A stretch of DNA of 64,000 nt from the IMG/VR virus record IMGVR_UViG_3300025466_000014, one strand, 5' to 3'. Both the position numbers and the translations under genes were made by a program. The notes beneath the pieces were generated by a model. It did no database searches, had not been told where the DNA came from, and saw nothing but the letters and a program-made list of their open reading frames with translations. This stretch comes from a virus. Shown piece by piece: positions 11,220 to 57,160 of the stretch. Position 1 is the stretch's first letter; every line of letters starts with the position of its first letter.

Positions 11220-11231
11220 AATTTACAGTTT
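11220..11231 (-). promoter_or_regulatory. Phage promoter motif AAACTGTAAAT(T), minus strand
   Basis: 28 nt upstream of the 11192 start; same motif as five plus-strand copies. Confidence 0.6.
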
Positions 11232-11256
11232 TTGCTGTTGGTTCAGACTTTGCAAG

Positions 11257-11546
11257 TGCCTACAAACGTGTAGGCAAAGCATGGACAGTAATAAGCAGTA
11301 ATAAGCAAAAAGCCCGGTAAATGGGTAGAGTGCAAAGACAAGCAAAACTGTAAATATCGCATGTTATCGTTTAATCGTTTAATCGTTTAATCCGCTAAGT
11401 AAGAATATGTAAAGGTTACAAAGTATTGTGCTACTTTGTAACCTCTTTAATAGAAACAGGCAAAAGGCAAGAAAATTTACAAAGTAGTGTAGTAGCACAA
11501 TACTTTGTAAATTTATACCTAAAAACAGGCTAAAGGCAAGGAAATT
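11257..11546. repeat. Palindrome/direct-repeat array at the strand-divergence point (candidate origin or operator)
   Basis: Hairpin TGCCTACA-AACG-TGTAGGCA; 2x CAGTAATAAG; 3x ATCGTTTA; 13-bp IR 11413-11425/11432-11444; 14-bp IR 11473-11486/11501-11514; 2x AAACAGGCWAAAGGCAAGRAAATT at 11454 and 11523. Confidence 0.85.
11345..11356 (+). promoter_or_regulatory. Phage promoter motif AAACTGTAAATA
   Basis: Exact copy, intergenic. Confidence 0.6.
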
Positions 11547-31338: not shown

Positions 31339-31968
31339 ATGAGAACAGACCTGGTTGTTTACACGGCAGAGAATTGCCTAATTAAGGAATTTGCTAGGAG
31401 CTTGAAAGCTAAGGTGCTTGTAGAGCGTAAAAGAGTAAAGGCGTGGGTAGACGATGTAAACACAACCTTTACATTTATGTGCGACGCATACCCAGAGCTT
31501 TTAGAGCAAATCTCTGCGCAGAGAGCCTTAATTAGGCTACGCACAAAAGGTACGCCTGCAACCGAGGACTTACCTAGCGTTAATTCTGTAAATAGCCAGA
31601 GTGCGCTTGAGGCAGCAAACTTTTTCCTGCTTAAAAAGGCATATAGGCAGGCAGCAAATTTATCCCATCCAGACAAAGGAGGTTCCGATGAAGACTTTCA
31701 AAACGTAAAAGCGGCTTATAAAGCCGGCGACTTAGGCTCCCTAAACGAATACGTGATAGCACGTAATCACAATTTAATCGCGCAGACAAAACACTGGCAA
31801 ATCGAACTTGAAAAACCCAACGCACAATGGCAAAAGATTGTCAGTGAGGAGCCTTATAGAGCAGTTGCTTTGTTTAAGGCCGGCAATAAAAAAGCCGCTA
31901 TGGTTCTAACTAAGAAAATTTTGGAACTAACTTTAGTGTCTCTCATAAAAGAGAACTCAGCCCTGTAA
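31339..31968 (+). CDS. J-domain (DnaJ-like) protein
   Basis: LKKAYRQAANLSHPDKGGS.EDF..VK.AY, with the HPD motif. Confidence 0.85.
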   Translation: MRTDLVVYTAENCLIKEFARSLKAKVLVERKRVKAWVDDVNTTFTFMCDAYPELLEQISAQRALIRLRTKGTPATEDLPSVNSVNSQSALEAANFFLLKKAYRQAANLSHPDKGGSDEDFQNVKAAYKAGDLGSLNEYVIARNHNLIAQTKHWQIELEKPNAQWQKIVSEEPYRAVALFKAGNKKAAMVLTKKILELTLVSLIKENSAL

Positions 31969-31987
31969 GTTTTAACGAAAGAAGTAA

Positions 31988-32722
31988 ATGGCAACTAAAC
32001 CGATGAAATCGAAAACCGTGGTAACTAAATCCAAGAAAGCAGCACCTGCTCCTGGTCGGCTTATTAAGCCGCTAACAAAAGCAGCGCCTGAGGCTACTGT
32101 GAAAAAAGGCTTTCCTGCTAAGAAGGGTTTTCCTGCACGTAAAGCAGGGACCCCTGCTAAGAAGAGTGCTCGCAAGCCGTTGCCTACCTACAAGGCACCT
32201 GCAGATTTCAAACCCCACTTTTTGCTGGTTCAATTCAATACGGAAAAAGACGCCCTTATTGGAAGCCAGGTAAGCGCGGTTCGCTACACAGGTCGCTTTG
32301 ACCGCGAAGCTGACGAAAAGAAGAAGTTTGTTATGAGCGCCTACGACCCGGCTACGGTTATGGGCATTGCGGCGCGCCTAGCGTCTGTAACGTACAAAAC
32401 CAACGCCGAAAAGAAGATGCCCGTCTCTATTAAAGAGAGAGCAACTATGAAGGGCGCAATGCGTTTGCCTGCAAACACAACTTTTCAAGTGCTTCTGCGC
32501 GTAGGTAAAAAATCAGCAGACCAATCTCTAACAGCTCGCGTAGTTTCAGTTTTTCAAGCAGTTGAGAACCCGACTACCGGCCGTAAAGGTTTGAAGGAAC
32601 TGCTAAAGACAGATATGGCTTATCGTGCCTTGCGAAAGGCAAGCCGCATTCTGCCAGCAGCATTCAAAAATGTTCTAATGCCACCGAAACGCACTCGTGC
32701 GTCTAAAGTGGAAGCAGAATAA
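31988..32722 (+). CDS. Basic protein with an H1-like K/A/P N-terminus and a globular domain
   Basis: KKAAPAPG...KKGFPAKKGFPARKAGTPAKK. Confidence 0.8.
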   Translation: MATKPMKSKTVVTKSKKAAPAPGRLIKPLTKAAPEATVKKGFPAKKGFPARKAGTPAKKSARKPLPTYKAPADFKPHFLLVQFNTEKDALIGSQVSAVRYTGRFDREADEKKKFVMSAYDPATVMGIAARLASVTYKTNAEKKMPVSIKERATMKGAMRLPANTTFQVLLRVGKKSADQSLTARVVSVFQAVENPTTGRKGLKELLKTDMAYRALRKASRILPAAFKNVLMPPKRTRASKVEAE

Positions 32723-32736
32723 AACCCAATTTTGCA

Positions 32737-32748
32737 AAACTGTAAATA
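32737..32748 (+). promoter_or_regulatory. Phage promoter motif AAACTGTAAATA
   Basis: Exact copy, intergenic, upstream of the H1-like gene at 32833. Confidence 0.6.
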
Positions 32749-32832
32749 GGTTTTGCTAGATCAAGATCGCGGCATCTTGTAAAAATGCTGTAAACAAACG
32801 TTTGTTTTTCAATTCAGTTCTTAAGGAAGAAA

Positions 32833-33648
32833 ATGGCAACTCGTACCGCAACCCGTACCGCGAAAACTACTCGCACTCCTCGTGCTGCAAAAGCAGCCGC
32901 AAAACCTGCTCGCATGACTCGTGAAGAAAAAGCCGCAGCCGCAGCTAAAGCAGAACGCATTGCTGCTCGCAAGGCACGTAAGTTGGCCGCCGAAAAGAAG
33001 GCAGCACGTCCTACAAAAGCAGCCGCAAAACCTGCTCGTCCTGCTGCAAAGAAAGTAGCCGCAAAAACAGCTAAACCTGCTGCAAAGGCTCCCCGCAAAA
33101 CTAAGGCAGTTGCCGCAGCAAGTACTACTTTGTGCCTGTCTATGATTGTACCTGTGCACGGCAAGGACATTAAAGTTCATGCAGCACACTATGAAGTCGA
33201 CGGCGTTGTTATTCCGCGCACACTGGTGGCCGCAATCGTAGGTTCTACCTTCTATGTTCGCAAGAGCGTACAAGTAGGCTCTCTGGCTTCTGTTAAGGAA
33301 GTTAAAGGCCAGGTAGTTTACGAAACTGAAACCGGTGACAAGGTCGTTGTGTTCGACACAAACTTGTTGACGCTGAGCGAAGGCGGTATCGTTTCATCCG
33401 CGGCATCTGAAGAAGACGAAGAAGCCGAGGAAGGTGATGACGAATCCGAGGACGAATTCGGTGAAGACGAAGATGACGAAGAAGGCGATGACGAGTCTGA
33501 AGACGAAGACGAAGAGTCGGATGAAGAAGAATCAGACGACGAAGACGAAGAAGATGACGAGTCTGAAGACGAAGACGAAGACGATGAAGAAGATGACGAA
33601 GAGTCCGATGACGAAGACGAGGATGATGACGAATTCTCTGAATTCTAA
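32833..33648 (+). CDS. Histone-H1-like protein: K/A/R N-terminus, beta-rich core, poly-D/E C-terminus
   Basis: AAKPARPAAKKVAAKTAKPAAK; about 79-aa D/E tail ending EFSEF. Confidence 0.85.
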   Translation: MATRTATRTAKTTRTPRAAKAAAKPARMTREEKAAAAAKAERIAARKARKLAAEKKAARPTKAAAKPARPAAKKVAAKTAKPAAKAPRKTKAVAAASTTLCLSMIVPVHGKDIKVHAAHYEVDGVVIPRTLVAAIVGSTFYVRKSVQVGSLASVKEVKGQVVYETETGDKVVVFDTNLLTLSEGGIVSSAASEEDEEAEEGDDESEDEFGEDEDDEEGDDESEDEDEESDEEESDDEDEEDDESEDEDEDDEEDDEESDDEDEDDDEFSEF

Positions 33649-33677
33649 ATCCAAGTTAGAGTAATTATTAAGTAAAT

Positions 33678-33712
33678 AAGGTGTAAGCAGCAAAAGTTGC
33701 TTACACCTTTTT
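33678..33712 (+). terminator. Rho-independent terminator
   Basis: AAGGTGTAAGCAGC-AAAA-GTTGCTTACACCTT followed by a T-run. Confidence 0.85.
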
Positions 33713-33734
33713 CATTTACCTACAGGATTTTTCT

Positions 33735-34019
33735 ATGGCAGATCATCTAGCTTTGTATAGTAGGAACTGCAAGTTTTGCAAGTCCCTAGACCCAGACGAA
33801 AAAAAGTATTTTCCTAAATGCCATTTTGAAAAGGGCAATAAAGACTGCCCGGCTAGTGAAATCCAGATTGCCGTTGTAGGTCAGGCGCAACGTGCGGCTA
33901 AAGCAGTGCTTAAGGCACGAGCGGCTAACAACATAGACCAGGAAATTCAAATCTTGTCTTTTGTTGCAAAAAAGAGCAAACCCTTTCAGCAAAAATTTAG
34001 GGAATGGTTGTTAAAATGA
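33735..34019 (+). CDS. Hypothetical protein with Cys cluster
   Basis: CKFC...C......CP. Confidence 0.75.
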   Translation: MADHLALYSRNCKFCKSLDPDEKKYFPKCHFEKGNKDCPASEIQIAVVGQAQRAAKAVLKARAANNIDQEIQILSFVAKKSKPFQQKFREWLLK

Positions 34020-34729
34020 CCGAGCATACCCAGGACGCCAATGTCCTCAATTTTGTTAGAATAAAATCTTGGTACATACCTAGCGACGCGCTATGCTACG
34101 CAATGCTGAAAAAGCTAGGTGTGCCTATGTTGAAGATTCATGCAGATTTCATCCCAACTCTGGGCCTTCTTCTTAAGCCTAAGGGCTTTAGGGCAAAATC
34201 AAAAAACTTTAACGAAATTCGAGATACCTTTTTAGACAAGTTGGGTACGCAGTGGAAATCTAAAGATGATCGCTCCTGCAAACTAGATGACAATACGTTA
34301 GTTTTTACAGCGGTTGCCTCTAAAGCAAACAAGAAGTCTATTGCAAAGGTTGAGACGCTAATTCATGCGTTCTGCTCTCGGTGGGGCTTTAGCTGCAATT
34401 CTCAATTTTCAGAGTTGCCTAAAAAGCTCAAGCTTTCTGTTAAGTACAAGTTTAGTTCTGAGGCTGAACCAGTAATACCAAACGTGGACTTGCCCAAACA
34501 AGTATCTCACGAGATGATTCTAGGCTTCAACAAGATTCGTATTTCAGTTCTGCCAGCTACTGAAAAAACAAAGGTGCAGCGTTCCTCACTTGAGGTATTT
34601 GTTAAGGCTGGAACCGAATGGGTAGCCGTACACACCAGTACGTTTACGGATTACGAAATTGGTGACGTTACAGATTTTGCGGCGGCTGTAGGAACTTTGT
34701 TTACCCGACGCAAGATTAGAGAGGGCTAA
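34016..34729 (+). CDS. Hypothetical protein
   Basis: ORF directly before topoisomerase B. Confidence 0.75.
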   Translation: MTEHTQDANVLNFVRIKSWYIPSDALCYAMLKKLGVPMLKIHADFIPTLGLLLKPKGFRAKSKNFNEIRDTFLDKLGTQWKSKDDRSCKLDDNTLVFTAVASKANKKSIAKVETLIHAFCSRWGFSCNSQFSELPKKLKLSVKYKFSSEAEPVIPNVDLPKQVSHEMILGFNKIRISVLPATEKTKVQRSSLEVFVKAGTEWVAVHTSTFTDYEIGDVTDFAAAVGTLFTRRKIREG

Positions 34730-34734
34730 TTAAA

Positions 34735-36648
34735 ATGGCAACTAAGAAGGTAGTTACGGTACTTAAGAAAGTAGGCTCAAATTATTCATCCGACGATGTA
34801 CAGACGCTCCGTTTTCCCGAAATGGTGCGCCAGAACGCGTCTATGTATATTGGTGGAACTGACGCGCATGGCTTGTTTGTTATTCTACGCGAGTTGCTGG
34901 ACAACGCCGTAGACGAATACTTGGCTAACCGCAATACTTTTGTTGCGGCAAAGATTGATAGCGACGGTTCCTATTGGGTTCAAGACGGAGGCGCAGGCAT
35001 ACCGCAGGGTATTAAAAAGGTTGTAGTGCAAGTTAACGGCAAAAGTGTTGATAGCTCTATGCCTACTATGCAAGCAATCTTTGGTGAACTTCATACCTCA
35101 GGCAAGTTTAAGTCTGACGCCTATAAAGTTTCGATTGGCTCACACGGTGTAGGTGTCAAAGGTACTAATGCAACCTCTGAATACTTTGAAGTTAAGTCGT
35201 GCTTTAAGGGCAAATGGTACTCCATATCTTTTGCTCGGGGTGTACTAAAGGCCGGAGTTGCTGAATGCAAAGCTCCTAAAAGCCCCTTTAGCGGCAAGGT
35301 TCTTACTAAAGGTACTTTGGTACACTATAAACCAGACGCAACGATTTTTACCGTTAAGTCCTTTCCGCTTTCAATGCTGCAAGAGTGGTCGCAGTTGCAG
35401 GCGTATTTGAATCCGGGTTTCAGGATTATCTTGGATGTAAAAGGCAAGCAGAAGCAATTCATTAAGACAGGCGGTCCTAAGGATTACTTAAAGGACAAGT
35501 TGGAGGAACTTAAAGCTGATTCAGAGCCCGATACATTCTGGTTTAAGAATGAGTTGGCGACTGTTGCAGTTGCGTTTTCCAACGTGGACGGCTTTATGGT
35601 TCGAGGCTTTACTAATGGCTTGTCGAACTCGCAGGGAGGTACTCATGTTGAGGCAGTTGCTTCTGCCCTGTACCGTGCGGTGTCGGCGCACAAGGGAACC
35701 AAGCAGGTTTTCAAGGCAGCGGACTTTAAAGACGGTCTTTTGGGTATTGTAAATGCTAATTTGCACAAAGCGGAGTTCTCGTCTCAGGACAAGGCGAAGC
35801 TAACTGACACACGCACTGGAAAAGCTTTTGAAGATCTCTTATTTGAGGAGGCTAAGGCGTTCTTTTCAAAGAACAAAGCACTTGCTAAAAGGCTGTGCGA
35901 CAGGGCCGCCAAAGTTTCAGAACTTAAGAACAAATTTAAGGCTTCCAAAGCAGTTGCAACGGCTTTGGGTAAAGCCAAGAAGCAAGGTCTGCCTCCTAAC
36001 TACGCGCCTGCGCATCGTTCGGTACCTGTAAAAGATCGCATTTTGATGATTGTCGAGGGCGATTCGGCGGCTGGTGGTTTGCGACAAGTTAGGGAAAAGC
36101 ATCATGCTCTGCTTCCGCTGACCGGAAAAATTATGAACTGCGCAAAAGCTAAGGGAGACAAAGCATTGCTGTCAAAAGCAATCCTGAATATCTTGGCTGC
36201 TATCGGCTACGACCCTAAGCAAGAAGACCCGATGAGGAAGTTACAGGTCGGCAAGGTGCTATTCTTGGCTGACCCAGACCCTGATGGATGCCACATTAAC
36301 TGTCTGCTTGCAACGCTCTTTAAGAAGTATCTTCCAGACATGTTTGACCAAGGTATGGTGTACGTTGCTGACATGCCGGAGTTCTACGCAATATCTAAAG
36401 ACCAGCTCTTTGTTGGCCCAACGCTTTCTTCAGTACAGCGTAAATTAGAGAAAGCAAAGGTTAAATGCGATGTGCATCACGCAAAAGGCTGGGGCGAGAT
36501 TGACCATCAGATTTTAAAGATACTGGCAGTGGATGAAGCTACGTCCAAGCGTATAAGGCTAAAGGCGTTAGACGATAACGATGACGCTGTGTTTGATAAA
36601 CTTATGGGTAGCGTAGGCGAAGACCCGGCAGACGCAAAAGCCGCTTAA
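34735..36648 (+). CDS. gyrB: Type IIA DNA topoisomerase subunit B (GyrB/ParE-like)
   Basis: ELLDNAVDE, LHTSGKF, GSHGVG, TOPRIM EGDSA, PL.GKIMN, D.D.DG.HI. Confidence 0.95.
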   Translation: MATKKVVTVLKKVGSNYSSDDVQTLRFPEMVRQNASMYIGGTDAHGLFVILRELLDNAVDEYLANRNTFVAAKIDSDGSYWVQDGGAGIPQGIKKVVVQVNGKSVDSSMPTMQAIFGELHTSGKFKSDAYKVSIGSHGVGVKGTNATSEYFEVKSCFKGKWYSISFARGVLKAGVAECKAPKSPFSGKVLTKGTLVHYKPDATIFTVKSFPLSMLQEWSQLQAYLNPGFRIILDVKGKQKQFIKTGGPKDYLKDKLEELKADSEPDTFWFKNELATVAVAFSNVDGFMVRGFTNGLSNSQGGTHVEAVASALYRAVSAHKGTKQVFKAADFKDGLLGIVNANLHKAEFSSQDKAKLTDTRTGKAFEDLLFEEAKAFFSKNKALAKRLCDRAAKVSELKNKFKASKAVATALGKAKKQGLPPNYAPAHRSVPVKDRILMIVEGDSAAGGLRQVREKHHALLPLTGKIMNCAKAKGDKALLSKAILNILAAIGYDPKQEDPMRKLQVGKVLFLADPDPDGCHINCLLATLFKKYLPDMFDQGMVYVADMPEFYAISKDQLFVGPTLSSVQRKLEKAKVKCDVHHAKGWGEIDHQILKILAVDEATSKRIRLKALDDNDDAVFDKLMGSVGEDPADAKAA

Positions 36649-36659
36649 AAAAGGATTTT

Positions 36660-38111
36660 ATGACGCAGACTAACGAGCAAAGTTTAGCAGACTTTGGCAC
36701 AAAAAATATGGGCATATACGCCGAGGAGGTTAACCTCGGTCGTGCGGTTCCTGATTTGATTGATGGACTAAAACCTGTGCAGCGACGCATTATGTGGGCT
36801 GCGGCAAACTTGGGTAAGGATTTCGTAAAAACTGCTCGCGTTGTAGGTGATTGCATTGGTCGATACCATCCACATGGAGACGCTTCGGTTTCCGGTGCAA
36901 TTACTACCATAGTGCAATCTAACGTGCCCACTATTAACGGCAAAGGCAACTGGGGGTCTTTAATAGACCCAGCGGCTGCGATGCGGTACACTAACTTGTG
37001 TCTTTCGGACTACGGTTGGGAATTTTTTAAGCCAGACTACATTGCTAAAGCAGTAACTTCTTTTGTACCCAATTACGACGACACGACAGTAGAGCCGGTT
37101 TCTTTGCCAGCACTGCTGCCCAACGTTTTGATAAATGGCGGCGAAGGCATTGGTGTGGGTACAACCACAATGCTTCCCACGTTTACGCCTGAATCTATTA
37201 TCGGCGTACTTGAACGACTACTTAAGGGCGAAAAGCTTAAACCAATCGACTACGCAAAGGCGCTAAAGTACAACAACCGGTACGGAGGACACCTTGTTAA
37301 GTCTAAGGAGAATTCGGCAGCGTGGTTGCAAATGTTTACGTCACCAAGAACCTCGGTTCAGTTTGAGGCCCAGCTAGAAATAGATAGAGACCACAAAGCA
37401 ATTGAGATTTCAGATTGGCCTGAGGGTTTGAACCCGCTAAAGTTTATTGAGAAAGTTCGAGGCTTTCCTGAATGCGACCAAGCCTTTAACCACAAGGGAG
37501 CAGTTGGTTTTAGAATTGAAATGCGCAAAGACCACAACTTTGAGCAGTTTGACAAGTTTGTAGAGAAGGTTCAAAAGGCTACGCAGGTTAGGCGCCCGTT
37601 TAAAATAAACGTTACGCACCGCACGTCGCAGGTTAACGACGGGGTTGTTACGTTTGACACCAAGTACCTAAGCCTGTCTGTGCCTCAGTTAATAAACAAG
37701 TGGCTTACGGAGCGCCTGCAATTAGAGAAGCGTTCGCTAGAATATCGAATTGGAAAACAGGAAGCGGCAATTGCCTATTCAAAGCTTTTGATCTTTGCAG
37801 CAAGTAGCCTGGATATAATCTTTAAAGCTCTGCGTGTTGACGACAGCCAGGGCTACCTAGTAAAGTACATGAAGATTTCTCCGGAGCAGGCGACACAGAT
37901 TCTAGAGTTGAGAGTTCGGCAACTGTCCAAACTGGATACAAACGCGCTAAAGAACAAGTTAGCAGAGCAAGTCAAGGAATTGAACGTGCTTCAGGGCTAC
38001 TTTAAGAAGCCGAGACCAAAGATAATTGCCGATTGTGCAAACATATTGGCAGCCATCGAGCGAGATAGGAAGTTTGAGGCTTCCAAAGACCGCAAGATGT
38101 CCGTTAAGTAG
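36660..38111 (+). CDS. gyrA: Type IIA DNA topoisomerase subunit A (GyrA/ParC-like, no CTD pinwheel)
   Basis: DGLKPVQRRI, YHPHGD, AAAMRYT with the catalytic Tyr; 483 aa. Confidence 0.95.
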   Translation: MTQTNEQSLADFGTKNMGIYAEEVNLGRAVPDLIDGLKPVQRRIMWAAANLGKDFVKTARVVGDCIGRYHPHGDASVSGAITTIVQSNVPTINGKGNWGSLIDPAAAMRYTNLCLSDYGWEFFKPDYIAKAVTSFVPNYDDTTVEPVSLPALLPNVLINGGEGIGVGTTTMLPTFTPESIIGVLERLLKGEKLKPIDYAKALKYNNRYGGHLVKSKENSAAWLQMFTSPRTSVQFEAQLEIDRDHKAIEISDWPEGLNPLKFIEKVRGFPECDQAFNHKGAVGFRIEMRKDHNFEQFDKFVEKVQKATQVRRPFKINVTHRTSQVNDGVVTFDTKYLSLSVPQLINKWLTERLQLEKRSLEYRIGKQEAAIAYSKLLIFAASSLDIIFKALRVDDSQGYLVKYMKISPEQATQILELRVRQLSKLDTNALKNKLAEQVKELNVLQGYFKKPRPKIIADCANILAAIERDRKFEASKDRKMSVK

Positions 38112-38123
38112 AAACTGTAAATA
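38112..38123 (+). promoter_or_regulatory. Phage promoter motif AAACTGTAAATA
   Basis: Exact copy just after the topo A stop, upstream of the H1-like gene at 38232. Confidence 0.6.
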
Positions 38124-38231
38124 CAGACTACAAACCAAATTTGGGCTTTAATTTTAAAGTCCAAATGTGTGTTGCTCTTTTGGTAATTCAAGAAAGCAAC
38201 TTTTTTTAAACTTTAACCTTTTAGGTAAAAA

Positions 38232-38618
38232 ATGGCAACTAATAACATCCCACTTACTAAACAAGTAGCAAACATCGTGAAAGAAAAAACTCGATTGGAA
38301 AAGCTGGTTGCTCGTCTTGAGAGCCAGGTAGAAAAATTGCAAATCAAGGTTGCTGGCGGTAAAGCAGTTAAAGCCCCTAAGGCTACAAAAGCAGCAAAAG
38401 CTGGCAAGACTCCCCGTGCAGCAAAAGCAGTTGAAGCTGACGAACCCGTAGCAAAGACTCCTCGCGCTAAGAAGGCTTTGGCTGAAAAGCGTCCGGCTAA
38501 AGCCGAAAAGGTTGCCAAAGGTTCCGCTAAGAAAGTAAAGGCTGCTAAGACACCAGCTAAAGCTGAAAAAGTTCCTGCAAAAAAATCGCGTAAGAACTCA
38601 GAAGATTTTCTGCTGTAA
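38232..38618 (+). CDS. H1-like protein: N-terminal coiled coil plus K/A/P-rich tail
   Basis: EKTRLEKLVARLESQVEKLQ, then KAVKAPKATKAAKAGKTPRAAK... Confidence 0.85.
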   Translation: MATNNIPLTKQVANIVKEKTRLEKLVARLESQVEKLQIKVAGGKAVKAPKATKAAKAGKTPRAAKAVEADEPVAKTPRAKKALAEKRPAKAEKVAKGSAKKVKAAKTPAKAEKVPAKKSRKNSEDFLL

Positions 38619-38635
38619 AACAAAAAGTAGTGTTT

Positions 38636-38670
38636 GGTTGGGAACGGTTATTTATTTAGCCGTTCCCACC
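38636..38670 (+). terminator. Putative terminator hairpin
   Basis: GGTTGGGAACGGTTA...TAGCCGTTCCCACC; weak U-tract. Confidence 0.55.
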
Positions 38671-38680
38671 TTGCGTTTAT

Positions 38681-39736
38681 ATGGAGCAAATTATGCAAGA
38701 TAGTCAAGAAACTCCGGATTTCGTTAACGAAGATGACAATAGACTCGCCGCAATGAAGTCTCGTCTGGCTAACTTGAATTCGGTTAAGATGAGTGTTGCG
38801 AAGCTTAACACCGTGCTGGGAAACCTAGCGGTAGCAAACAAGAACAAGCAATTGTCGCTCTTGCGCCAAGCCCGTGTGTATCTGGATAAAGTACAGACAA
38901 CTAAAGGTCAACGCCTCAAGGCTAACCTAACAATTATCGCTAACGAGCTCTACTCTCTGCAAGAGGGGCTCTTGGCAGGTTCAGTAAAACCAAAAGACTT
39001 GGTACTAATTAGTAGCGTTCGCGTTCTAAAGGAAATGAACGAAACCACAAAGTCCTTGGCTGCGGCAATTGCACGTAGTGAGGCACGTTTAGGTATAAGC
39101 GCAGAAGTTCTCGACCCCTCAACCGTGTTGCTGAAAAATAATAAAGAACTTTCCGGCAATATTCCAGATTTGAACGGCAAGGACTTTGCGATTATTCGAG
39201 CCCCTGTTGCTTTTACCTTTAACAAGAAGAAACACTCTTCTGTAGGCTACGTTGATACAGATCGTCTACGCCGTCAAGGATTCAAAGTTGACAACTTGGA
39301 CGGATACACTATCTTGCATAAGCAGATGCTTATTGGGGTAAATAGTGAGGCTCGTTTTGAGTTGGATGACAAGGGCGAAAAGCAAGTTCAAAAGGTGACT
39401 GACCGTGTTACCAAGTTTAAGGGCGGCCGACCCGTGCAGGTTAATGTTAAGCGTGAAAAGACAATTACAGATTTGGCTAGAGAAATCCTAGATGATCTCG
39501 AAGTTAAAACTAAGACTGCCTACTCATTAGTTAGTACCGTTCCTGCGCGACATGGTAATGCACTGTGGTTCTGGGCTGCTGCGGCTATGGACATTAAGCG
39601 GCTTAGCCTCGCCTTTCCAGGTAATCACATGAACGTTAATACCTGGGGCCCTGCTTTCCCTGTAGAGGAGAAAGCCAAACGTGAGGTTCCTCTGGATGAA
39701 AAAGGCAAACCTATCATAAAGAAGGAAGCCCGATGA
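38681..39736 (+). CDS. Hypothetical protein (351 aa)
   Basis: Long ORF, helical N-terminal half. Confidence 0.8.
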   Translation: MEQIMQDSQETPDFVNEDDNRLAAMKSRLANLNSVKMSVAKLNTVLGNLAVANKNKQLSLLRQARVYLDKVQTTKGQRLKANLTIIANELYSLQEGLLAGSVKPKDLVLISSVRVLKEMNETTKSLAAAIARSEARLGISAEVLDPSTVLLKNNKELSGNIPDLNGKDFAIIRAPVAFTFNKKKHSSVGYVDTDRLRRQGFKVDNLDGYTILHKQMLIGVNSEARFELDDKGEKQVQKVTDRVTKFKGGRPVQVNVKREKTITDLAREILDDLEVKTKTAYSLVSTVPARHGNALWFWAAAAMDIKRLSLAFPGNHMNVNTWGPAFPVEEKAKREVPLDEKGKPIIKKEAR

Positions 39737-40257
39737 AAATACTTGCAATTATTCCTACAGACGCTACGTTGGACTATTTGAAAGATTGCTTTCAGGCCAC
39801 TAACGTAGAAATAGATTGGGATAACGTTTACGTAGAAATCTGCTCTACCGACAAACAGATTGAACTGCGACCCAATAAAGTCTACCAGTTCAACGCTGGT
39901 TCAATGGGTTACTGGTATGATGACGACGCAGGTCATTCCAATATCATATTACCGTTGATACCCGGTGACGATGCAATAAGCAGGTTTAAAGAAGTCGGCG
40001 ACATTTGGAAAAGACATTTTGTACCGCACATGGTGCTTACAGACAAGTTTAACAATAAACGCCGAACTAAGGCTAGGATAAACTCCATAGCTACAGGCTT
40101 AATTGAAGTCCAACCTATTCTAGAGTTTTATTCTGAGATGTGGATTGAATTAAGCGAGCCGCAAAGGCAACGACCGCGCCAGCACGCCTTCTACCAAGAC
40201 TATTTGGCAAGAGGGCAAGTAACAAATGTTGTCTACATAGACGAAGAAAGAAACTAA
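39733..40257 (+). CDS. Divergent 2H-phosphoesterase-fold protein (T4 57B/Acb1-like)
   Basis: TLDYL...VYVEICST...YW...IILPL...FVPHMVL aligns by eye to Acb1 TLDAL...IHSTICYS...VW...LVLVL...YTPHITL. Confidence 0.5.
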   Translation: MKILAIIPTDATLDYLKDCFQATNVEIDWDNVYVEICSTDKQIELRPNKVYQFNAGSMGYWYDDDAGHSNIILPLIPGDDAISRFKEVGDIWKRHFVPHMVLTDKFNNKRRTKARINSIATGLIEVQPILEFYSEMWIELSEPQRQRPRQHAFYQDYLARGQVTNVVYIDEERN

Positions 40258-54732: not shown

Positions 54733-55674
54733 ATGTCTTATCAGCATTCGGAATCTTTTGCTAAACTTAAATCCATTAAAGAGGGTATTGATAGTTCCCT
54801 AACAAGCTATCAATGGCTTGCAACTCTTGATTATTTTATTGAATCCGCAATTGACCCTATGGTTACCTCTTTACCACTGCTAGTAAACAACTACTACGCT
54901 AAGGTAATTGCTTGGCAATCACATAAGCCTTCAATAAAGTTTTCAAGAATAAACAAACATGATTTGCCCACTCTGCTTTTTAACTCTATTACTACCGAAG
55001 GTGCGGTGAGCAGAAGCTTTCAAAAAGAGATGCTACTTAACCGAGGCCTCCTGTTTGGGCTAATTAACATCTTTCAGCATACTGTAAATGGATATATGCA
55101 AGTGCATAATCCGGCTACTAGGATAACCAACAATGACCGAATGTTAAAACTGGCTATTGCTGAAAAGAATTTTGATACTACCTACTTGTATGCTTCGGCT
55201 AGAGAATCTCAATTCTGGGCTAACAAGGCTTACTCGTTCAAAAAGCTTATAGTTCAAAAGTACACTAGGCTGGCGCTAATGAACGCGAAGGGCGTTTACA
55301 CGCAGGTTCATACGTATCTTAAACTAGACGATATCGTGCAAACGTATCTAATGTTTTTATCTAAGGCCATTGACCGGTGTGACTCTAGGCAAGGTGTGCT
55401 TACTACGTTTATACAAACTTGGTTTCACTCTGCTAAGGCGCATACTATGAAAGAAGCCCAAGATAAACATCAGCAATCATCTTTTGATGAACAGCATGAA
55501 ACAACAGATTTGTCGGTAGGTCCTGATACCTCTTACGAGAATATTCAGCACATAGCCAGCACTGCTAAAAGAGTTGACCCATCAGGAATTTTGCGCGTGT
55601 CTCTTGGCATACCAGAATTTTTGAGTAGCAACCAGTTAAGTATCTTAGCCCACCACTGTAAAAAGGAAATTTAA
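54733..55674 (+). CDS. Sigma70-family (region 2) transcription factor
   Basis: IVQKYTRLAL..AK.......LDDIVQ.Y...L.KAIDR.D.RQG.LTTFI..W. Confidence 0.7.
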   Translation: MSYQHSESFAKLKSIKEGIDSSLTSYQWLATLDYFIESAIDPMVTSLPLLVNNYYAKVIAWQSHKPSIKFSRINKHDLPTLLFNSITTEGAVSRSFQKEMLLNRGLLFGLINIFQHTVNGYMQVHNPATRITNNDRMLKLAIAEKNFDTTYLYASARESQFWANKAYSFKKLIVQKYTRLALMNAKGVYTQVHTYLKLDDIVQTYLMFLSKAIDRCDSRQGVLTTFIQTWFHSAKAHTMKEAQDKHQQSSFDEQHETTDLSVGPDTSYENIQHIASTAKRVDPSGILRVSLGIPEFLSSNQLSILAHHCKKEI

Positions 55675-55675
55675 A

Positions 55676-57160
55676 ATGGATTTAGATGACGCAAAAAGTA
55701 ATTCACGGGAAAATCAACCGCGTGAATCGGACCTTGTAAACATTTACAAATTCCCAGAGAAAAAATGGGTAACAATTCGTCTAACACCTGGCTTGCAAGT
55801 TAAGGCAAATTATTGGGTTAAGGTTACTACCAAGAGTGGTAAGAAGACAAAGTTCCCAACTAGCGTACCATCTTTTGATACAGCCTCACAAGAGCGGGAT
55901 AGCACAAAATACGATCCATGGCGTGACCTGCAGGCTTACGAGGCAAAGCTGGTTGCCGATGGTAAGATGACTAAGGAAGAACAGAATATTCAGTATAGCC
56001 CTGCGTACTTTATGCAGGCTATTATTCGTTCCGAGCAAAAGAAAGCACCTGCTCGGCTCCCTAAGCCTACGGCAGACGAGCGCAAGACCGGTTTCAAAGA
56101 AAAAGATTCGGATTCATGGACACCCAAGATGGTTGTTTCTTTGGGTCGTGCTTTCATTGGTAAGGTCAAGGACTTGAAGGGGCTTAACACAGTAGAGTCG
56201 CCTAAAACAGGCGCAGTTAAGGCGTTCGCAGTTAACGACGTTAAATTTGGACGTGACTTGCGCGTCTACTTTGACCCTGACAAAGCCCCTGCTGAGCAAT
56301 ATCAAGTACAAATGGGCGATAAGCGTACTCCTCTCACAGAAGAAGAGCTGGCCTATCTGTCTTGGGATTTGTCTTTGCTGGAAGCTCCTACGGTTGAGGA
56401 CTCAGAGATTAAACGTGATTTTGAAAGCTGGGCAACACGTAATAAGATTAAACTTCCTAAGAGCATTAAGGCTTCTAAGAGCCACGATGAAGAGGATGAA
56501 GAAGATGAAGAAGATGAAGAAGACGAGGACGATAAGCCTTCTAAGAAATCCTCTAAGGCTTCGACTAAATCTAAGTCTAAGGCGTCTAAGCACGTTGAGG
56601 ATGACGAAGACGAAGACGAAGAAGATGCTGATGAGGATTTTGACGACGAAGAGGACGAGGACGAGAAGTCTTCTAAGTCAAGCAAGTCCGGTAAATCGGC
56701 TAAGAAGCCCGCAGCTAAGAAGTCATCTAAATTCAAAGTAGATGAGGACGAGGATGAAGATGATTTTGACGACGAAGATGAGGATGAAGATGAGGATGAA
56801 GATGAGGAGGACGAAAAGCCTTCTAAGTCTAAGAAACCCGCTGCGAAAAAGTCTTCCAAGAAAAAAGTAGATGAAGACGAAGACGATTTTGACGACGAGG
56901 AAGACGATGACGAATCTGATGATGAAGACGAAGATTCGGATGACGAGGATGAAGACGAAGAGGATGTAAAGCCTTCTAAGTCTAAGAAACCTGCAGCCAA
57001 GTCTACAAAATCTAAAAAGAAAGTAGACGAGGATGATTTTGACGACGAAGACGAGGACGAAGAAGCTGAACCTCCTAAGTCCAAAAAGCCAGCTGCTAAG
57101 AAGACTTCCTCTAAGTCTAAGAAAAAAGTAGATGATGAAGACGAAGACGACGATTTCTAA
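55676..57160 (+). CDS. ssb: gp32-like ssDNA-binding protein with a long alternating acidic/basic tail
   Basis: F..KW.TIRL.P...Y...AI.R...D.K.GRDL.V.......Y.V.....TPLTEEE; acidic C-terminus ending in F; lies upstream of recA. Confidence 0.65.
   Translation: MDLDDAKSNSRENQPRESDLVNIYKFPEKKWVTIRLTPGLQVKANYWVKVTTKSGKKTKFPTSVPSFDTASQERDSTKYDPWRDLQAYEAKLVADGKMTKEEQNIQYSPAYFMQAIIRSEQKKAPARLPKPTADERKTGFKEKDSDSWTPKMVVSLGRAFIGKVKDLKGLNTVESPKTGAVKAFAVNDVKFGRDLRVYFDPDKAPAEQYQVQMGDKRTPLTEEELAYLSWDLSLLEAPTVEDSEIKRDFESWATRNKIKLPKSIKASKSHDEEDEEDEEDEEDEDDKPSKKSSKASTKSKSKASKHVEDDEDEDEEDADEDFDDEEDEDEKSSKSSKSGKSAKKPAAKKSSKFKVDEDEDEDDFDDEDEDEDEDEDEEDEKPSKSKKPAAKKSSKKKVDEDEDDFDDEEDDDESDDEDEDSDDEDEDEEDVKPSKSKKPAAKSTKSKKKVDEDDFDDEDEDEEAEPPKSKKPAAKKTSSKSKKKVDDEDEDDDF

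Follow-up and report, generated by a model that had tools for sequence, protein, structure and literature searches.

A conserved gene block with charged, putatively DNA-organising proteins beside topoisomerase II in phiRSL1-like jumbo phages

How jumbo phages without a protein nucleus organise and untangle genomes of 200–260 kb in the cell is the question raised by the locus considered here. The window, a stretch of 64,000 nucleotides (IMG/VR record IMGVR_UViG_3300025466_000014), belongs to a relative, from a freshwater metagenome, of Ralstonia phage phiRSL1, Burkholderia phages BcepSaruman, BcepSauron and BCSR5, and Achromobacter phage Motura; a preprint (bioRxiv 10.64898/2026.10.21.760668) describes these relatives as distant from phages that form a nucleus. 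A preliminary description proposed that three H1-like proteins and a J-domain chaperone bracket the topoisomerase II genes and compact phage DNA. Its observation holds; its interpretation is partly supported. The reading preferred here, to which we give a joint probability of about 0.45 for the explanation as a whole, is that the block belongs, as a conserved segment, to the replication module of phiRSL1-like (presumably non-chimallin) jumbo myophages, and that it encodes, beside a T4-type topoisomerase II, several charged and largely disordered proteins associated with nucleic acid. Judged by their sequences, the charged proteins are probably uncharacterised DNA-organising proteins. A review of the biology of jumbo phages from June 2026 does not use the word ‘histone’.

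The block runs on the plus strand in the order J209 (J-domain protein), KA244, KA271 (a tripartite protein), o94, o241, topoB and topoA. The preliminary description had suggested checking synteny across related jumbo phages, and the outcome is positive: the order is kept in phiRSL1, BcepSaruman, BCSR5 and Motura, and is found again in 15–16 of 16 IMG/VR loci; gene-order conservation spans five cultured phages and 16 IMG/VR loci. A J209 homologue lies directly upstream of the KA244 homologue in 15/16 IMG/VR loci, a tripartite KA271-type gene sits between KA244 and o94 in all 15 of 15, and a KA128-like gene often follows 3′ of topoA. Orthologues of the charged proteins are ORF326, ORF328/329 and ORF342 in phiRSL1, gp175, gp174 and gp167 in BcepSauron, and gp337, gp335 and gp329 in Motura; in their charged segments, charge is kept and sequence is not. 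The neighbours are replication and recombination genes, encoding an NAD ligase, a Dda-like helicase, a RecA-like protein and a phage sigma-like factor that is 42% identical to phiRSL1 ORF224. Next to the RecA-like gene, a 494-residue protein displays alternating acidic and basic blocks and ends in DDDF.

The topoisomerase genes are solidly assigned by Pfam and PHROG. The large, GyrB-like subunit topoB (34735..36648, +) matches PF00204, PF01751 (Toprim), PF02518 (HATPase_c) and PHROG 543 (E 9e-128), and the GyrA/ParC-like cleavage–religation subunit topoA (36660..38111, +) matches PF00521 (E 1.3e-73) and PHROG 551 (E 7e-85) and is 54–57% identical to its counterparts in phiRSL1, Saruman and BCSR5. 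All parts of a T4-type enzyme are thus present: GHKL ATPase, GyrB transducer and Toprim domains, and a GyrA/ParC-type cleavage subunit. Directly upstream of topoB lies the conserved o241 (34004..34729, +), and always just 5′ of o241 the small Cys-rich protein o94 (33735..34019, +; CxxC...C.H....C), which is 30–54% identical in nearly all relatives. Downstream, o351 and o174 (38681..40257, +) have homologues 3′ of topoA or of the KA128-like gene in Saruman, BCSR5, Motura and several IMG/VR loci. Pfam, PHROG and NCBIfam searches gave no family for o94, o241, o351 or o174. The claim that the K/A/P-rich genes flank the topoisomerase genes and adjoin a J-domain gene is right in that J209 adjoins KA244, but KA271 is separated from topoB by the conserved o94 and o241. 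Adjacency to topoisomerase II is in itself no evidence of cooperation with it.

All open reading frames of the preliminary description are present where it placed them. When the 235 window ORFs of at least 60 residues were scanned for K+A+P content in a 40-residue window, KA244, KA271 and KA128 (starting at 31988, 32833 and 38232) took ranks 1–3, with top fractions of 0.80, 0.72 and 0.62; the next ORF reaches 0.53. None of the three has a Pfam match at E ≤0.1 or resembles a known capsid or tail protein.

KA244 (31988..32722, +) has a variable, basic K/A/P arm (residues ~1–65), followed by a conserved basic globular domain (~66–240) with a net charge of about +17 to +20. The arm carries +16 over residues 1–59 and +19 over residues 1–69. 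At the C-terminus, a conserved LPAAFKNV..PPKRTRG motif precedes an acidic tip. More than 150 metagenomic homologues share 42–75% identity; the family alignment has 24 invariant columns, many of them R or K, and 24/24 members have a globular part with a net charge of +13 to +24. The AlphaFold2 (AF2) core is predicted with pLDDT >90 and a (beta-beta-beta-alpha)x2 layout, for which no solved fold was matched (Foldseek E >1e-3; best VIA Z 5.6). Orthologues occur in BcepSauron, phiRSL1, BCSR5 and Motura. Conservation across the clade is 36–57%, against 48–66% for the topoisomerase subunits; being about as conserved as these, KA244 would seem to have a constrained core function. The arm is basic wherever present, and its absence from a few homologues of KA244 and a few of KA271 indicates that it is dispensable in some lineages. 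KA244 is thus a highly conserved basic globular protein with what the model predicts to be a novel alpha/beta domain.

The layout of KA271 (32833..33648, +) is unusual: a basic K/A/P/R arm (residues 1–97, +26), an all-beta core of ~85 residues (98–184, −1) and a giant polyacidic tail (185–271, −65) that ends in ..DDDEFSEF, with Phe as the last residue. A 36-nt tandem repeat underlies the arm, and the tail contains imperfect repeats. In the AF2 model the core reaches pLDDT >90, and a helix in the arm spans residues 30–57; no fold match was found, with the core searched only within the full-length model and the helix filling the result list. With the core as query, phmmer found 19 matches among 1.8 billion representatives, and core plus following acidic region is seen in 17/17 of those retrieved (two look truncated). 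The family is net acidic throughout, with a mean arm charge of +15.5 and a mean tail charge of −61, and in essentially all of its 31 members the final ~12 residues include one that is aromatic or hydrophobic. The acidic, disordered C-terminus with an aromatic or hydrophobic end is a feature that KA271 shares with SSB-type tails. With a net charge of −40 and a pI of 4.3 for the whole protein, only the first ~97 residues are H1-like, and KA271 cannot condense DNA by itself. Of the ‘three H1-like proteins’ proposed, KA244 and KA128 are indeed strongly basic, but KA271 is net acidic, and its polyacidic tail is universal in the family.

KA128 (38232..38618, +) begins with a coiled coil of ~35 residues, continues with a K/A/P tail of ~85 residues (residues 43–128, net +19) and closes with a hydrophobic EDFLL tip. 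Coiled coil and [DE]-x-[FY]-x-[LI] tip are present in every member of a ten-member alignment, and 10/10 are net +19 to +34 (pI 10.0–11.2). HMMER gave no homologues past its bias filters, and Pfam and NCBIfam gave no family.

Known families of basic DNA-condensing proteins were compared with all three. The K/A/P-rich, disordered basic tail of linker histones is present in KA128 and in the arms of KA244 and KA271. The linker histone H1 globular domain (PF00538) has no Pfam match here, and the AF2 models show an alpha/beta domain (KA244) and a beta core (KA271), not a winged helix. Neither chlamydial Hc1 nor Hc2 (PF07432, PF07382) is matched by the window proteins; HC2 is touched by only 2/18 KA271-family members (E 0.0016), a compositional match. 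No known family fits KA244, KA271 or KA128, and they define three uncharacterised families.

If the preferred reading is correct, KA244 would bind nucleic acid via its conserved globular domain, with the variable arm assisting. KA128 would pair through its coiled coil, and its H1-tail-like segment would bind DNA non-specifically, neutralising or bridging it; for the K/A proteins, binding and compaction are suggested by composition. KA271, whose polyacidic tail is far larger than the small basic arm and the beta core joined to it, would be a modulator rather than a condenser; the tail may shield basic surfaces or compete with DNA for them, as the tails of phi29 p6, HMGB1, SSB and gp32 do. The Phe/Leu tips of KA271 and KA128 might dock onto a partner.

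The same tips allow a different emphasis, namely that KA271 and KA128 are parts of a replisome or transcription scaffold, docked onto a hub such as a beta-clamp-like protein, SSB or topoisomerase II, with the disordered segments of opposite charge serving as tethers or driving a condensate-like replication factory and compaction not being their purpose. No linear feature of either family is better conserved than its tips (..EFSEF, ..DFEF and ..EELF in KA271; ..DFLL, ..GFLI and ..EFAI in KA128), which resemble those of SSB and T7 gp2.5 as well as clamp-binding peptides. phiRSL1 encodes both a beta-clamp-like protein and a clamp loader, and the DDDF-ending neighbour of the RecA-like gene, with its charge blocks, would also suit a scaffold. 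The tip consensus is loose, however, and the scaffold overlaps the preferred reading rather than excluding it; as a separate explanation we regard it as unlikely, if the best placed of the rivals.

The transcription signals bear on when such proteins would be made. The promoter-like motif AAACTGTAAATA, apparently a phage-specific single element, has eight sites within one mismatch in the window (five exact on the plus strand, three with one mismatch) against 0.82 expected, and none of 100 shuffles reaches eight. One copy (32737..32748, +) lies 96 nt upstream of KA271; another (38112..38123, +) follows directly after the topoA stop codon, 120 nt upstream of KA128. The core G-TAAATA recurs upstream of KA271 orthologues in Saruman, BCSR5, Motura, phiRSL1 and L004, and before KA128-like genes in BCSR5, Motura and phiRSL1, with a variant in Saruman. 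An intrinsic-terminator-like hairpin follows KA271 (33678..33709, +; 14-bp stem and T-run; z −6.2; MFE −24.4 versus −8.5 for shuffles), and a 12-bp stem with a weak T-tail follows KA128 (38639..38668, +; z −4.8). The proposal that each of these two genes has its own motif and terminator hairpin is therefore upheld, as the motif recurs above expectation and the hairpins fold far better than shuffles; each gene would thus lie between a phage-specific G-TAAATA promoter-like motif and a terminator. A further hairpin with U7 within the KA128 leader (38171..38207, +; leader fold z −3.85), between motif and start codon, could be a terminator of the topoA operon or an attenuator; it is not conserved in the relatives.

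This motif class enters into the argument on whether the proteins are packaged instead, the basic ones neutralising DNA in a very large capsid and being ejected with it, as with adenovirus protein VII or T4 internal proteins, and KA271 acting as an acidic assembly partner. Strongly basic composition would suit this role, as would phiRSL1 ORF137, which adjoins the major head gene and also has a K/A/P-rich C-terminal tail. In BcepSaruman the motif also heads operons that possibly read on into portal and protease genes, which counts for packaging and makes any assignment of expression timing tentative. In phiRSL1, however, the genes that follow the motif include those for SSB and primase and both K/A genes, and no copy lies directly before capsid, sheath or tube genes. 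Moreover, the genes lie within the replication module, not among structural genes, and Pfam and PHROG searches found no similarity to any structural family. Packaging is therefore somewhat less probable still than a scaffold.

The preferred reading, charge-based handling of DNA, also includes J209 (31339..31968, +), a J-domain-like co-chaperone with helix II, HPD and helix III at residues ~95–130 and a helical C-terminal part. The J-domain assignment is supported in that the HPD (H110, P111, D112) and its flanks are invariant in 11 homologues, five homologues carry PF00226, and the family profile matches J domains of known structure from Sis1, DNAJA1 and T antigen (E 6e-6); but the protein's own score against Pfam DnaJ (PF00226; E 3.4e-5, 24.3 bits) is below the gathering cut-off of 27.8. 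KA244 would be co-transcribed with this protein, which would recruit host DnaK; the suggested tie to the charged proteins comes from adjacency to KA244 only.

Host takeover or counter-defence would give J209 another role, hijacking DnaK, with the KA271 tail mimicking DNA to sequester host DNA-binding proteins and the basic proteins coating or disrupting the host nucleoid. A tail with a charge of about −65 over ~87 residues speaks for mimicry, and a J-domain protein of a phage can act on host regulation, as in the case of RB43 Rki. That jumbo phages vary in the fate of the host chromosome (PMC13282480) also counts in its favour. Strict conservation beside core replication genes across a deep clade is, however, unusual for counter-defence genes, which are usually variable; PADLOC gave no matches, a weak point since its library holds host defence rather than phage counter-defence proteins. 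The DNA mimics known to us are folded, not disordered, and takeover is accordingly improbable. K/A-rich tails can bind RNA, and polycationic disordered tails are generic polyanion binders. Binding to RNA, ribosomes or polyphosphate instead of DNA, as by mRNA chaperones or by the H1-like, K/A-tailed AlgP, which is reported to bind polyphosphate and to act on polyphosphate granules (PMC9239181), is equally improbable, as the replication-gene context and topoisomerase synteny fit DNA better and no RNA-binding domain was found in Pfam or NCBIfam searches.

The preferred reading of DNA-organising proteins has a bolder extension, which we regard as a long shot. In jumbo phages of the phiRSL1 type, which presumably have no chimallin shell, KA128 and KA244 as polycations and KA271 as polyanion might assemble on phage DNA into a tunable replication compartment resembling a coacervate; conserved C-terminal tips would anchor it to the replisome or topoisomerase II, and J209 with host DnaK would remodel it. 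If true, this would be a protein–DNA condensate alternative to the phage nucleus. More generally, three uncharacterised families are syntenic with topoisomerase II across the clade, and their architectures point to charge-based DNA handling. Cultured members (phiRSL1, BcepSauron/Saruman, Motura) make the idea directly testable. If it is right, a phage-encoded chromatin-like layer is added; if wrong, these are still core clade genes needing a function.

Several known systems offer parallels. J209 shares the helix II–HPD–helix III signature with bacterial DnaJ and with J-domain proteins of viruses and phages (polyomavirus T antigens, RB43 Rki). It differs in that its J domain lies mid-protein within 209 residues and that the Gly/Phe region, the zinc-finger region and the C-terminal client domains of DnaJ are all absent. 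Like T4 late promoters (TATAAATA), the motif consists of one short A/T-rich −10-like element, lacks a conserved −35 and often overlaps the end of the preceding gene; the phage also encodes its own sigma-like factor. The motif differs in its G-TAAATA core with clade-specific 5′ extensions (AAACTG.., CAGCAG.., GTAG.., AATCG..), and in that the phiRSL1 genes behind it are those for SSB and primase, not those for capsid or sheath.

HMGB1, SSB, T4 gp32 and T7 gp2.5 likewise combine a DNA-binding part, putative in KA271, with a regulating polyacidic tail; SSB and gp2.5 tails end in an aromatic residue used for partner docking. KA271 differs from these in that no HMG box or OB fold was detected, and its tail is far longer than any of theirs. 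The nearest functional analogy for KA271 would be phi29 p6, a small phage protein that organises the genome. Its core is rich in beta structure, and its C-terminal tail, acidic and disordered, acts as an electrostatic shield that reduces affinity for DNA (PMC10899789). That tail comprises ~24 residues, 10 of them acidic, whereas the tail of KA271 has ~87, a net charge of −65 and an aromatic tip. KA271 also has the extra basic arm; PHROG and PDB searches gave no sequence match to p6, and p6 is not among the fold matches of the full-length model.

The KA128 tail and the KA244 and KA271 arms have the same K/A/P composition as the H1 C-terminal domain, Chlamydia Hc1/Hc2, Pseudomonas AlgP, Streptomyces DdbA and the mycobacterial Ku PAKKA tail. 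In DdbA, Hc2 and mycobacterial Ku, such repeat tails are already established as modules that bind DNA. In H1 and its bacterial counterparts the segments are K/A/P-rich, repeat-derived, disordered and polycationic, as is the KA271 arm with its 36-nt tandem repeat. The window proteins differ from them in having no winged helix and no match to Hc1/Hc2 or another family. Here, instead, the segments are joined to new modules (a coiled coil and tip, an alpha/beta domain, a beta core and acidic tail), and the genes are phage-encoded, beside topoisomerase II.

The co-oriented gene run at 31339-40257, on the + strand throughout, opens with the J-domain-like co-chaperone J209 (31339-31968) and two of three K/A/P-rich charged proteins named by length, KA244 (31988-32722) and KA271 (32833-33648). 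These are followed by the conserved neighbours o94 and o241 (33735-34729) and by the type II topoisomerase genes, topoB for the large, GyrB-like subunit (34735-36648) and topoA for the GyrA-like subunit (36660-38111); both topoisomerase assignments are unambiguous. The third charged protein, KA128 (38232-38618), precedes two further conserved neighbours, o351 and o174 (38681-40257). Among all 235 window ORFs of at least 60 aa, the charged proteins take ranks 1-3 by K+A+P share in a 40-residue window (KA271 0.80, KA128 0.72, KA244 0.62; next ORF 0.53). These ranks, together with the motif statistics and hairpin z-scores below, confirm the observation made in the preliminary description: the three K/A/P-rich proteins, the repeated motif and the strong hairpins are real. 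None of the three matches Pfam (run on all family members), NCBIfam, PADLOC or function-annotated PHROG entries, and family-profile sequence searches of the PDB return only low-complexity noise, the J domain excepted. KA244, KA271 and KA128 represent three distinct conserved families. Their orthologs, in cultured phages phiRSL1 ORF326, ORF328/329 and ORF342, BcepSaruman gp175, gp174 and gp167, and Motura gp337, gp335 and gp329, are all annotated as hypothetical. No description of them was found in the jumbo-phage literature consulted, which included a 2021 comparative genomics paper and a 2026 review. Four overlapping ORFs, at 32814-33170 (-), 32821-33273 (-), 33434-33664 (+) and 38213-38623 (-), were treated as off-frame readings and not as genes; long ORFs overlapping charged segments most probably arise from repetitive GCN/AAR and GAN codon runs. 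Comparable K/T-rich off-frame ORFs lie over acidic tails in relatives.

The window DNA is present in 2017 freshwater metagenomes, and the phage collection contains no DNA near-identical to it. By protein similarity, the nearest cultured relatives are Ralstonia phage phiRSL1 and Burkholderia phages BcepSaruman/Sauron and BCSR5 (topoA 54-57% identical), with Achromobacter phage Motura more distant. A recent preprint (bioRxiv 10.64898/2026.10.21.760668) sets the group well apart from phiKZ-like phages, which form a nucleus. The order o94, o241, topoB, topoA is common to phiRSL1, BcepSaruman, BCSR5 and Motura, in each case with a KA271-like gene upstream and a KA128-like gene downstream; o94 and o241 lie directly 5' of topoB throughout the clade. 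Scanning IMG/VR with the KA244 alignment yielded 16 loci, on contigs 56-263 kb long. In 15 of these, a J209 homolog lies directly 5' of the KA244 homolog; topoB follows the latter within a few kb in all 16, and topoA does so in 15. All 15 distinct loci encode, between KA244 and o94, a three-part protein built of basic arm, core and acidic tail, one of them without the basic arm, and in five of the IMG/VR loci a KA128-like gene is immediately 3' of topoA. Synteny across related jumbo phages, the check proposed in the preliminary description, thus holds, in cultured relatives as well as in the 16 IMG/VR loci, and from this shared order the block is ancestral to the clade. In Motura, the J-domain gene is split from the rest of the block by a 5-kb island of tRNA and metabolic genes.

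Several features of the block vary or stand apart. The small, Cys-rich o94 carries a zinc-ribbon-like pattern (CxxC...C.H....C); neither it nor o241 matched any family, and both are candidate topoisomerase accessory proteins. TopoB contains an intein (Intein_splicing and PT-HINT matches) in several relatives, for example at L004:14215-17238, with lengths of ~860-1007 aa; the window topoB is intein-free at 637 aa. In some relatives, topoA and the KA128-like gene are separated by a member of a further family with a K/A-rich N-terminus (355-467 aa), namely phiRSL1 ORF341 (L001:11250-12317), which has its own CAGCAGTAAATA motif, L002:8559-9962 and L011:16117-17397. No counterpart of this family was seen in the window.

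KA271 consists of a basic arm (residues 1-97, net +26, predicted helix 30-57), a core that is all-beta in the predicted model (residues 98-184, net -1, pLDDT >90) and a polyacidic tail (residues 185-271, net -65) ending in EFSEF. Only 19 proteins came up when 1.8 billion representatives were scanned in full with the core (HMMER). In each of the 17 matches retrieved, an acidic region follows the core; two seem truncated. Across the family (n = 31), the acidic tail is universal (mean -61) and every member is net acidic. The basic arm is smaller (mean +15.5) and absent in three members. Arm and tail charges do not co-vary (r = 0.10, n = 31), and simple intramolecular self-neutralisation is therefore not adopted for KA271. 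Nearly all tails end in aromatic or hydrophobic residues, e.g. ..DFEF, ..EELF or ..DFDL. Searches with the full-length model give no fold match for the core: Foldseek finds nothing, and VIA reaches Z <=3.2, with small barrels of Tudor, chromo and L19-like type. In phiRSL1, the annotation divides the ortholog between two ORFs in separate frames (L001:1350-2205): ORF328 covers the basic arm plus the core's first strand, and ORF329 begins mid-core (VIPR..) and holds the acidic tail. A frameshift, a sequencing error or a true split could account for this division in a conserved core.

KA244 has >150 metagenomic homologs at 42-75% identity and conservation across the clade similar to that of the topoisomerase subunits. 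Its N-terminal basic arm is variable (0 to ~77 residues, net 0 to +22); the conserved domain of ~175 residues is basic in 24 of 24 members (net +13 to +24), with many invariant Arg/Lys and a conserved C-terminal motif, LPAAFKNV..PPKRTRG. AlphaFold predicts this domain with pLDDT >90 as a repeated beta-beta-beta-alpha layout. Foldseek against the PDB finds MHC-like platforms only (E >1e-3) and no convincing solved structure; the best VIA-wide hits (cowpox OMCP, ligase adenylation subdomains) reach Z 5.6, below the tool's stated noise level, with an rmsd of 4.6 A over 117 residues for the best alignment. In BFVD, only uncharacterised orthologs appear (BcepSauron, phiRSL1, BCSR5, Motura). An Atlas feature search gave a weak Whirly lead (12% of one cluster, score 0.83), which was dropped because no other search confirmed it.

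By adjacency, the conserved partner of KA244 is J209. Its Pfam J-domain score falls slightly short of the cut-off (24.3 versus 27.8 bits); PF00226 is found in several homologs, HPD and its flanks are invariant across 11 of them, the family profile matches solved J domains (E 6e-6), and the Motura ortholog is annotated as DnaJ-like. J-domain co-chaperones are known in this jumbo-phage group from a comparative study (PMC7824862). The sequence evidence supports J209 as a probable J-domain protein.

KA128 found no homolog past HMMER's filters among 5.8 billion proteins, and its family of ten members is defined by position and architecture instead of sequence search. Each member has a ~35-residue N-terminal coiled-coil segment (..L.RENxxLTRxxAKLEAxVEKL..), a K/A(/P/E) tail and a C-terminal [DE]-x-[FY]-x-[LI] tip, seen as EDFLL, GFLI, EFLL, EFAI or DDFLI. 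All ten are strongly basic (net +19 to +34, pI 10.0-11.2). Composition ranges from Ala-rich (BcepSaruman) to Lys/Glu-rich (BCSR5); the family keeps charge, not sequence.

Both KA271 and KA128 are preceded by a repeated motif. In the window, AAACTGTAAATA occurs in five exact copies on the + strand and three one-mismatch copies, against 0.82 expected, and eight copies were reached in 0 of 100 shuffles. One copy (+) lies 96 nt 5' of KA271, and another (+) right after the topoA stop codon, 120 nt 5' of KA128. Hairpins follow both genes, at 33678-33709 (z -6.2) and 38639-38668 (z -4.8), respectively. In relatives, a G-TAAATA core with clade-specific 5' extensions is found 5' of the KA271 ortholog (BcepSaruman, BCSR5, Motura, phiRSL1 and locus L004) and of the KA128-like gene (BCSR5, Motura and phiRSL1; a variant in BcepSaruman). 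It is missing upstream of KA244 and J209, both apparently operon-internal. The element, which lacks a conserved -35 region and frequently overlaps the 3' end of the preceding gene, is similar to TATAAATA of T4 late promoters. The phiRSL1 genome has 12 copies of CAGCAGTAAATA within one mismatch (reversed control, 0), 5' of SSB, primase, a sugar/sulfate operon, small ORFs, ORF341 and both K/A genes. None lies directly upstream of the major head, sheath or tube genes, and a strict late (structural) promoter is rejected for this phage. The opposite assignment, strictly non-late, is not upheld in BcepSaruman, where GTAGTAAATA (8 sites versus 0) also precedes the large helicase and dCMP deaminase genes, whose operons could run on into protease and portal genes. 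G-TAAATA is a plausible candidate promoter element, phage-specific and common to the charged-protein genes and replication genes.

Between the motif and the start codon of KA128 lies a stable hairpin with a trailing U7 (38171-38207), which complicates a simple independent-promoter reading. This hairpin may terminate the topoisomerase operon or act as a leader attenuator of KA128, and is not conserved in relatives. Elsewhere, the divergent intergenic region at 11220-11356 contains two motif copies facing each other, AAACTGTAAATT (-) and AAACTGTAAATA (+), with three tandem TCGTTTAA units after the latter; it is likely a bidirectional control region.

The preliminary description had read these genes as a candidate phage chromatin module, with three H1-like condensers and a J-domain chaperone around topoisomerase II. 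Synteny and conservation lend this partial support, but KA271 does not fit: being tripartite, with an overall pI of 4.3, it is H1-like over only a third of its length. The best-supported reading, at a probability of about 0.45, is that the charged proteins form a nucleic-acid-associated architectural set acting on intracellular phage DNA beside topoisomerase II.

The block is surrounded by a replication/recombination module with an NAD-dependent ligase, a Dda-like helicase, a RecA-like protein and a sigma-like factor. The last (54733-55674, 313 aa, no Pfam match) shares 42% identity with phiRSL1 ORF224, whose annotation is RNA polymerase sigma factor, and this resemblance suggests that the phage may recognise promoters of its own class. 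The position of SSB in phiRSL1, between the sigma-like and RecA-like genes, is taken in the window by a 494-aa protein (55676-57160) that alternates K/S/A blocks with D/E blocks and ends in DDDF; this putative SSB gives no BLASTP alignment with phiRSL1 ORF222 and no Pfam match.

A replisome scaffold or condensate is an unlikely alternative, and that the charged proteins are packaged as internal proteins is more doubtful still. In phiRSL1, ORF137 (L009:21559-22047), just 3' of the major head gene, has a K/A/P-rich C-terminal tail (..KKPVAAAKRAAK); basic tails therefore occur in the clade's structural module too. A preprint on phiMatilda provides transcriptomes and proteomes for a relative. Binding of RNA or polyphosphate is improbable, although in AlgP the same K/A/P chemistry is able to target polyphosphate. 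Host takeover or DNA mimicry has an equally slim chance. DNA organisation as an alternative to the chimallin shell is speculation with little likelihood.

If the charged proteins do organise phage DNA beside topoisomerase II, KA128 would bind DNA non-specifically as a dimer, in the manner of an H1 tail; KA244 would be a basic globular binder of DNA or RNA with an auxiliary arm, and KA271, by analogy, an acid-tailed modulator. The C-terminal tips of KA271 and KA128 may suggest partner docking. Of documented proteins, phi29 p6 offers the nearest analogy for KA271: its acidic tail reduces DNA affinity by electrostatic shielding (PMC10899789). Among bacterial H1-like proteins, K/A/P repeat tails count as accepted modules for DNA binding. 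The chemistry is of a known kind, that of H1-like tails and acid-tailed DNA organisers; what is new is the architectures, their combination, and their fixed site beside topoisomerase II in a jumbo-phage clade.
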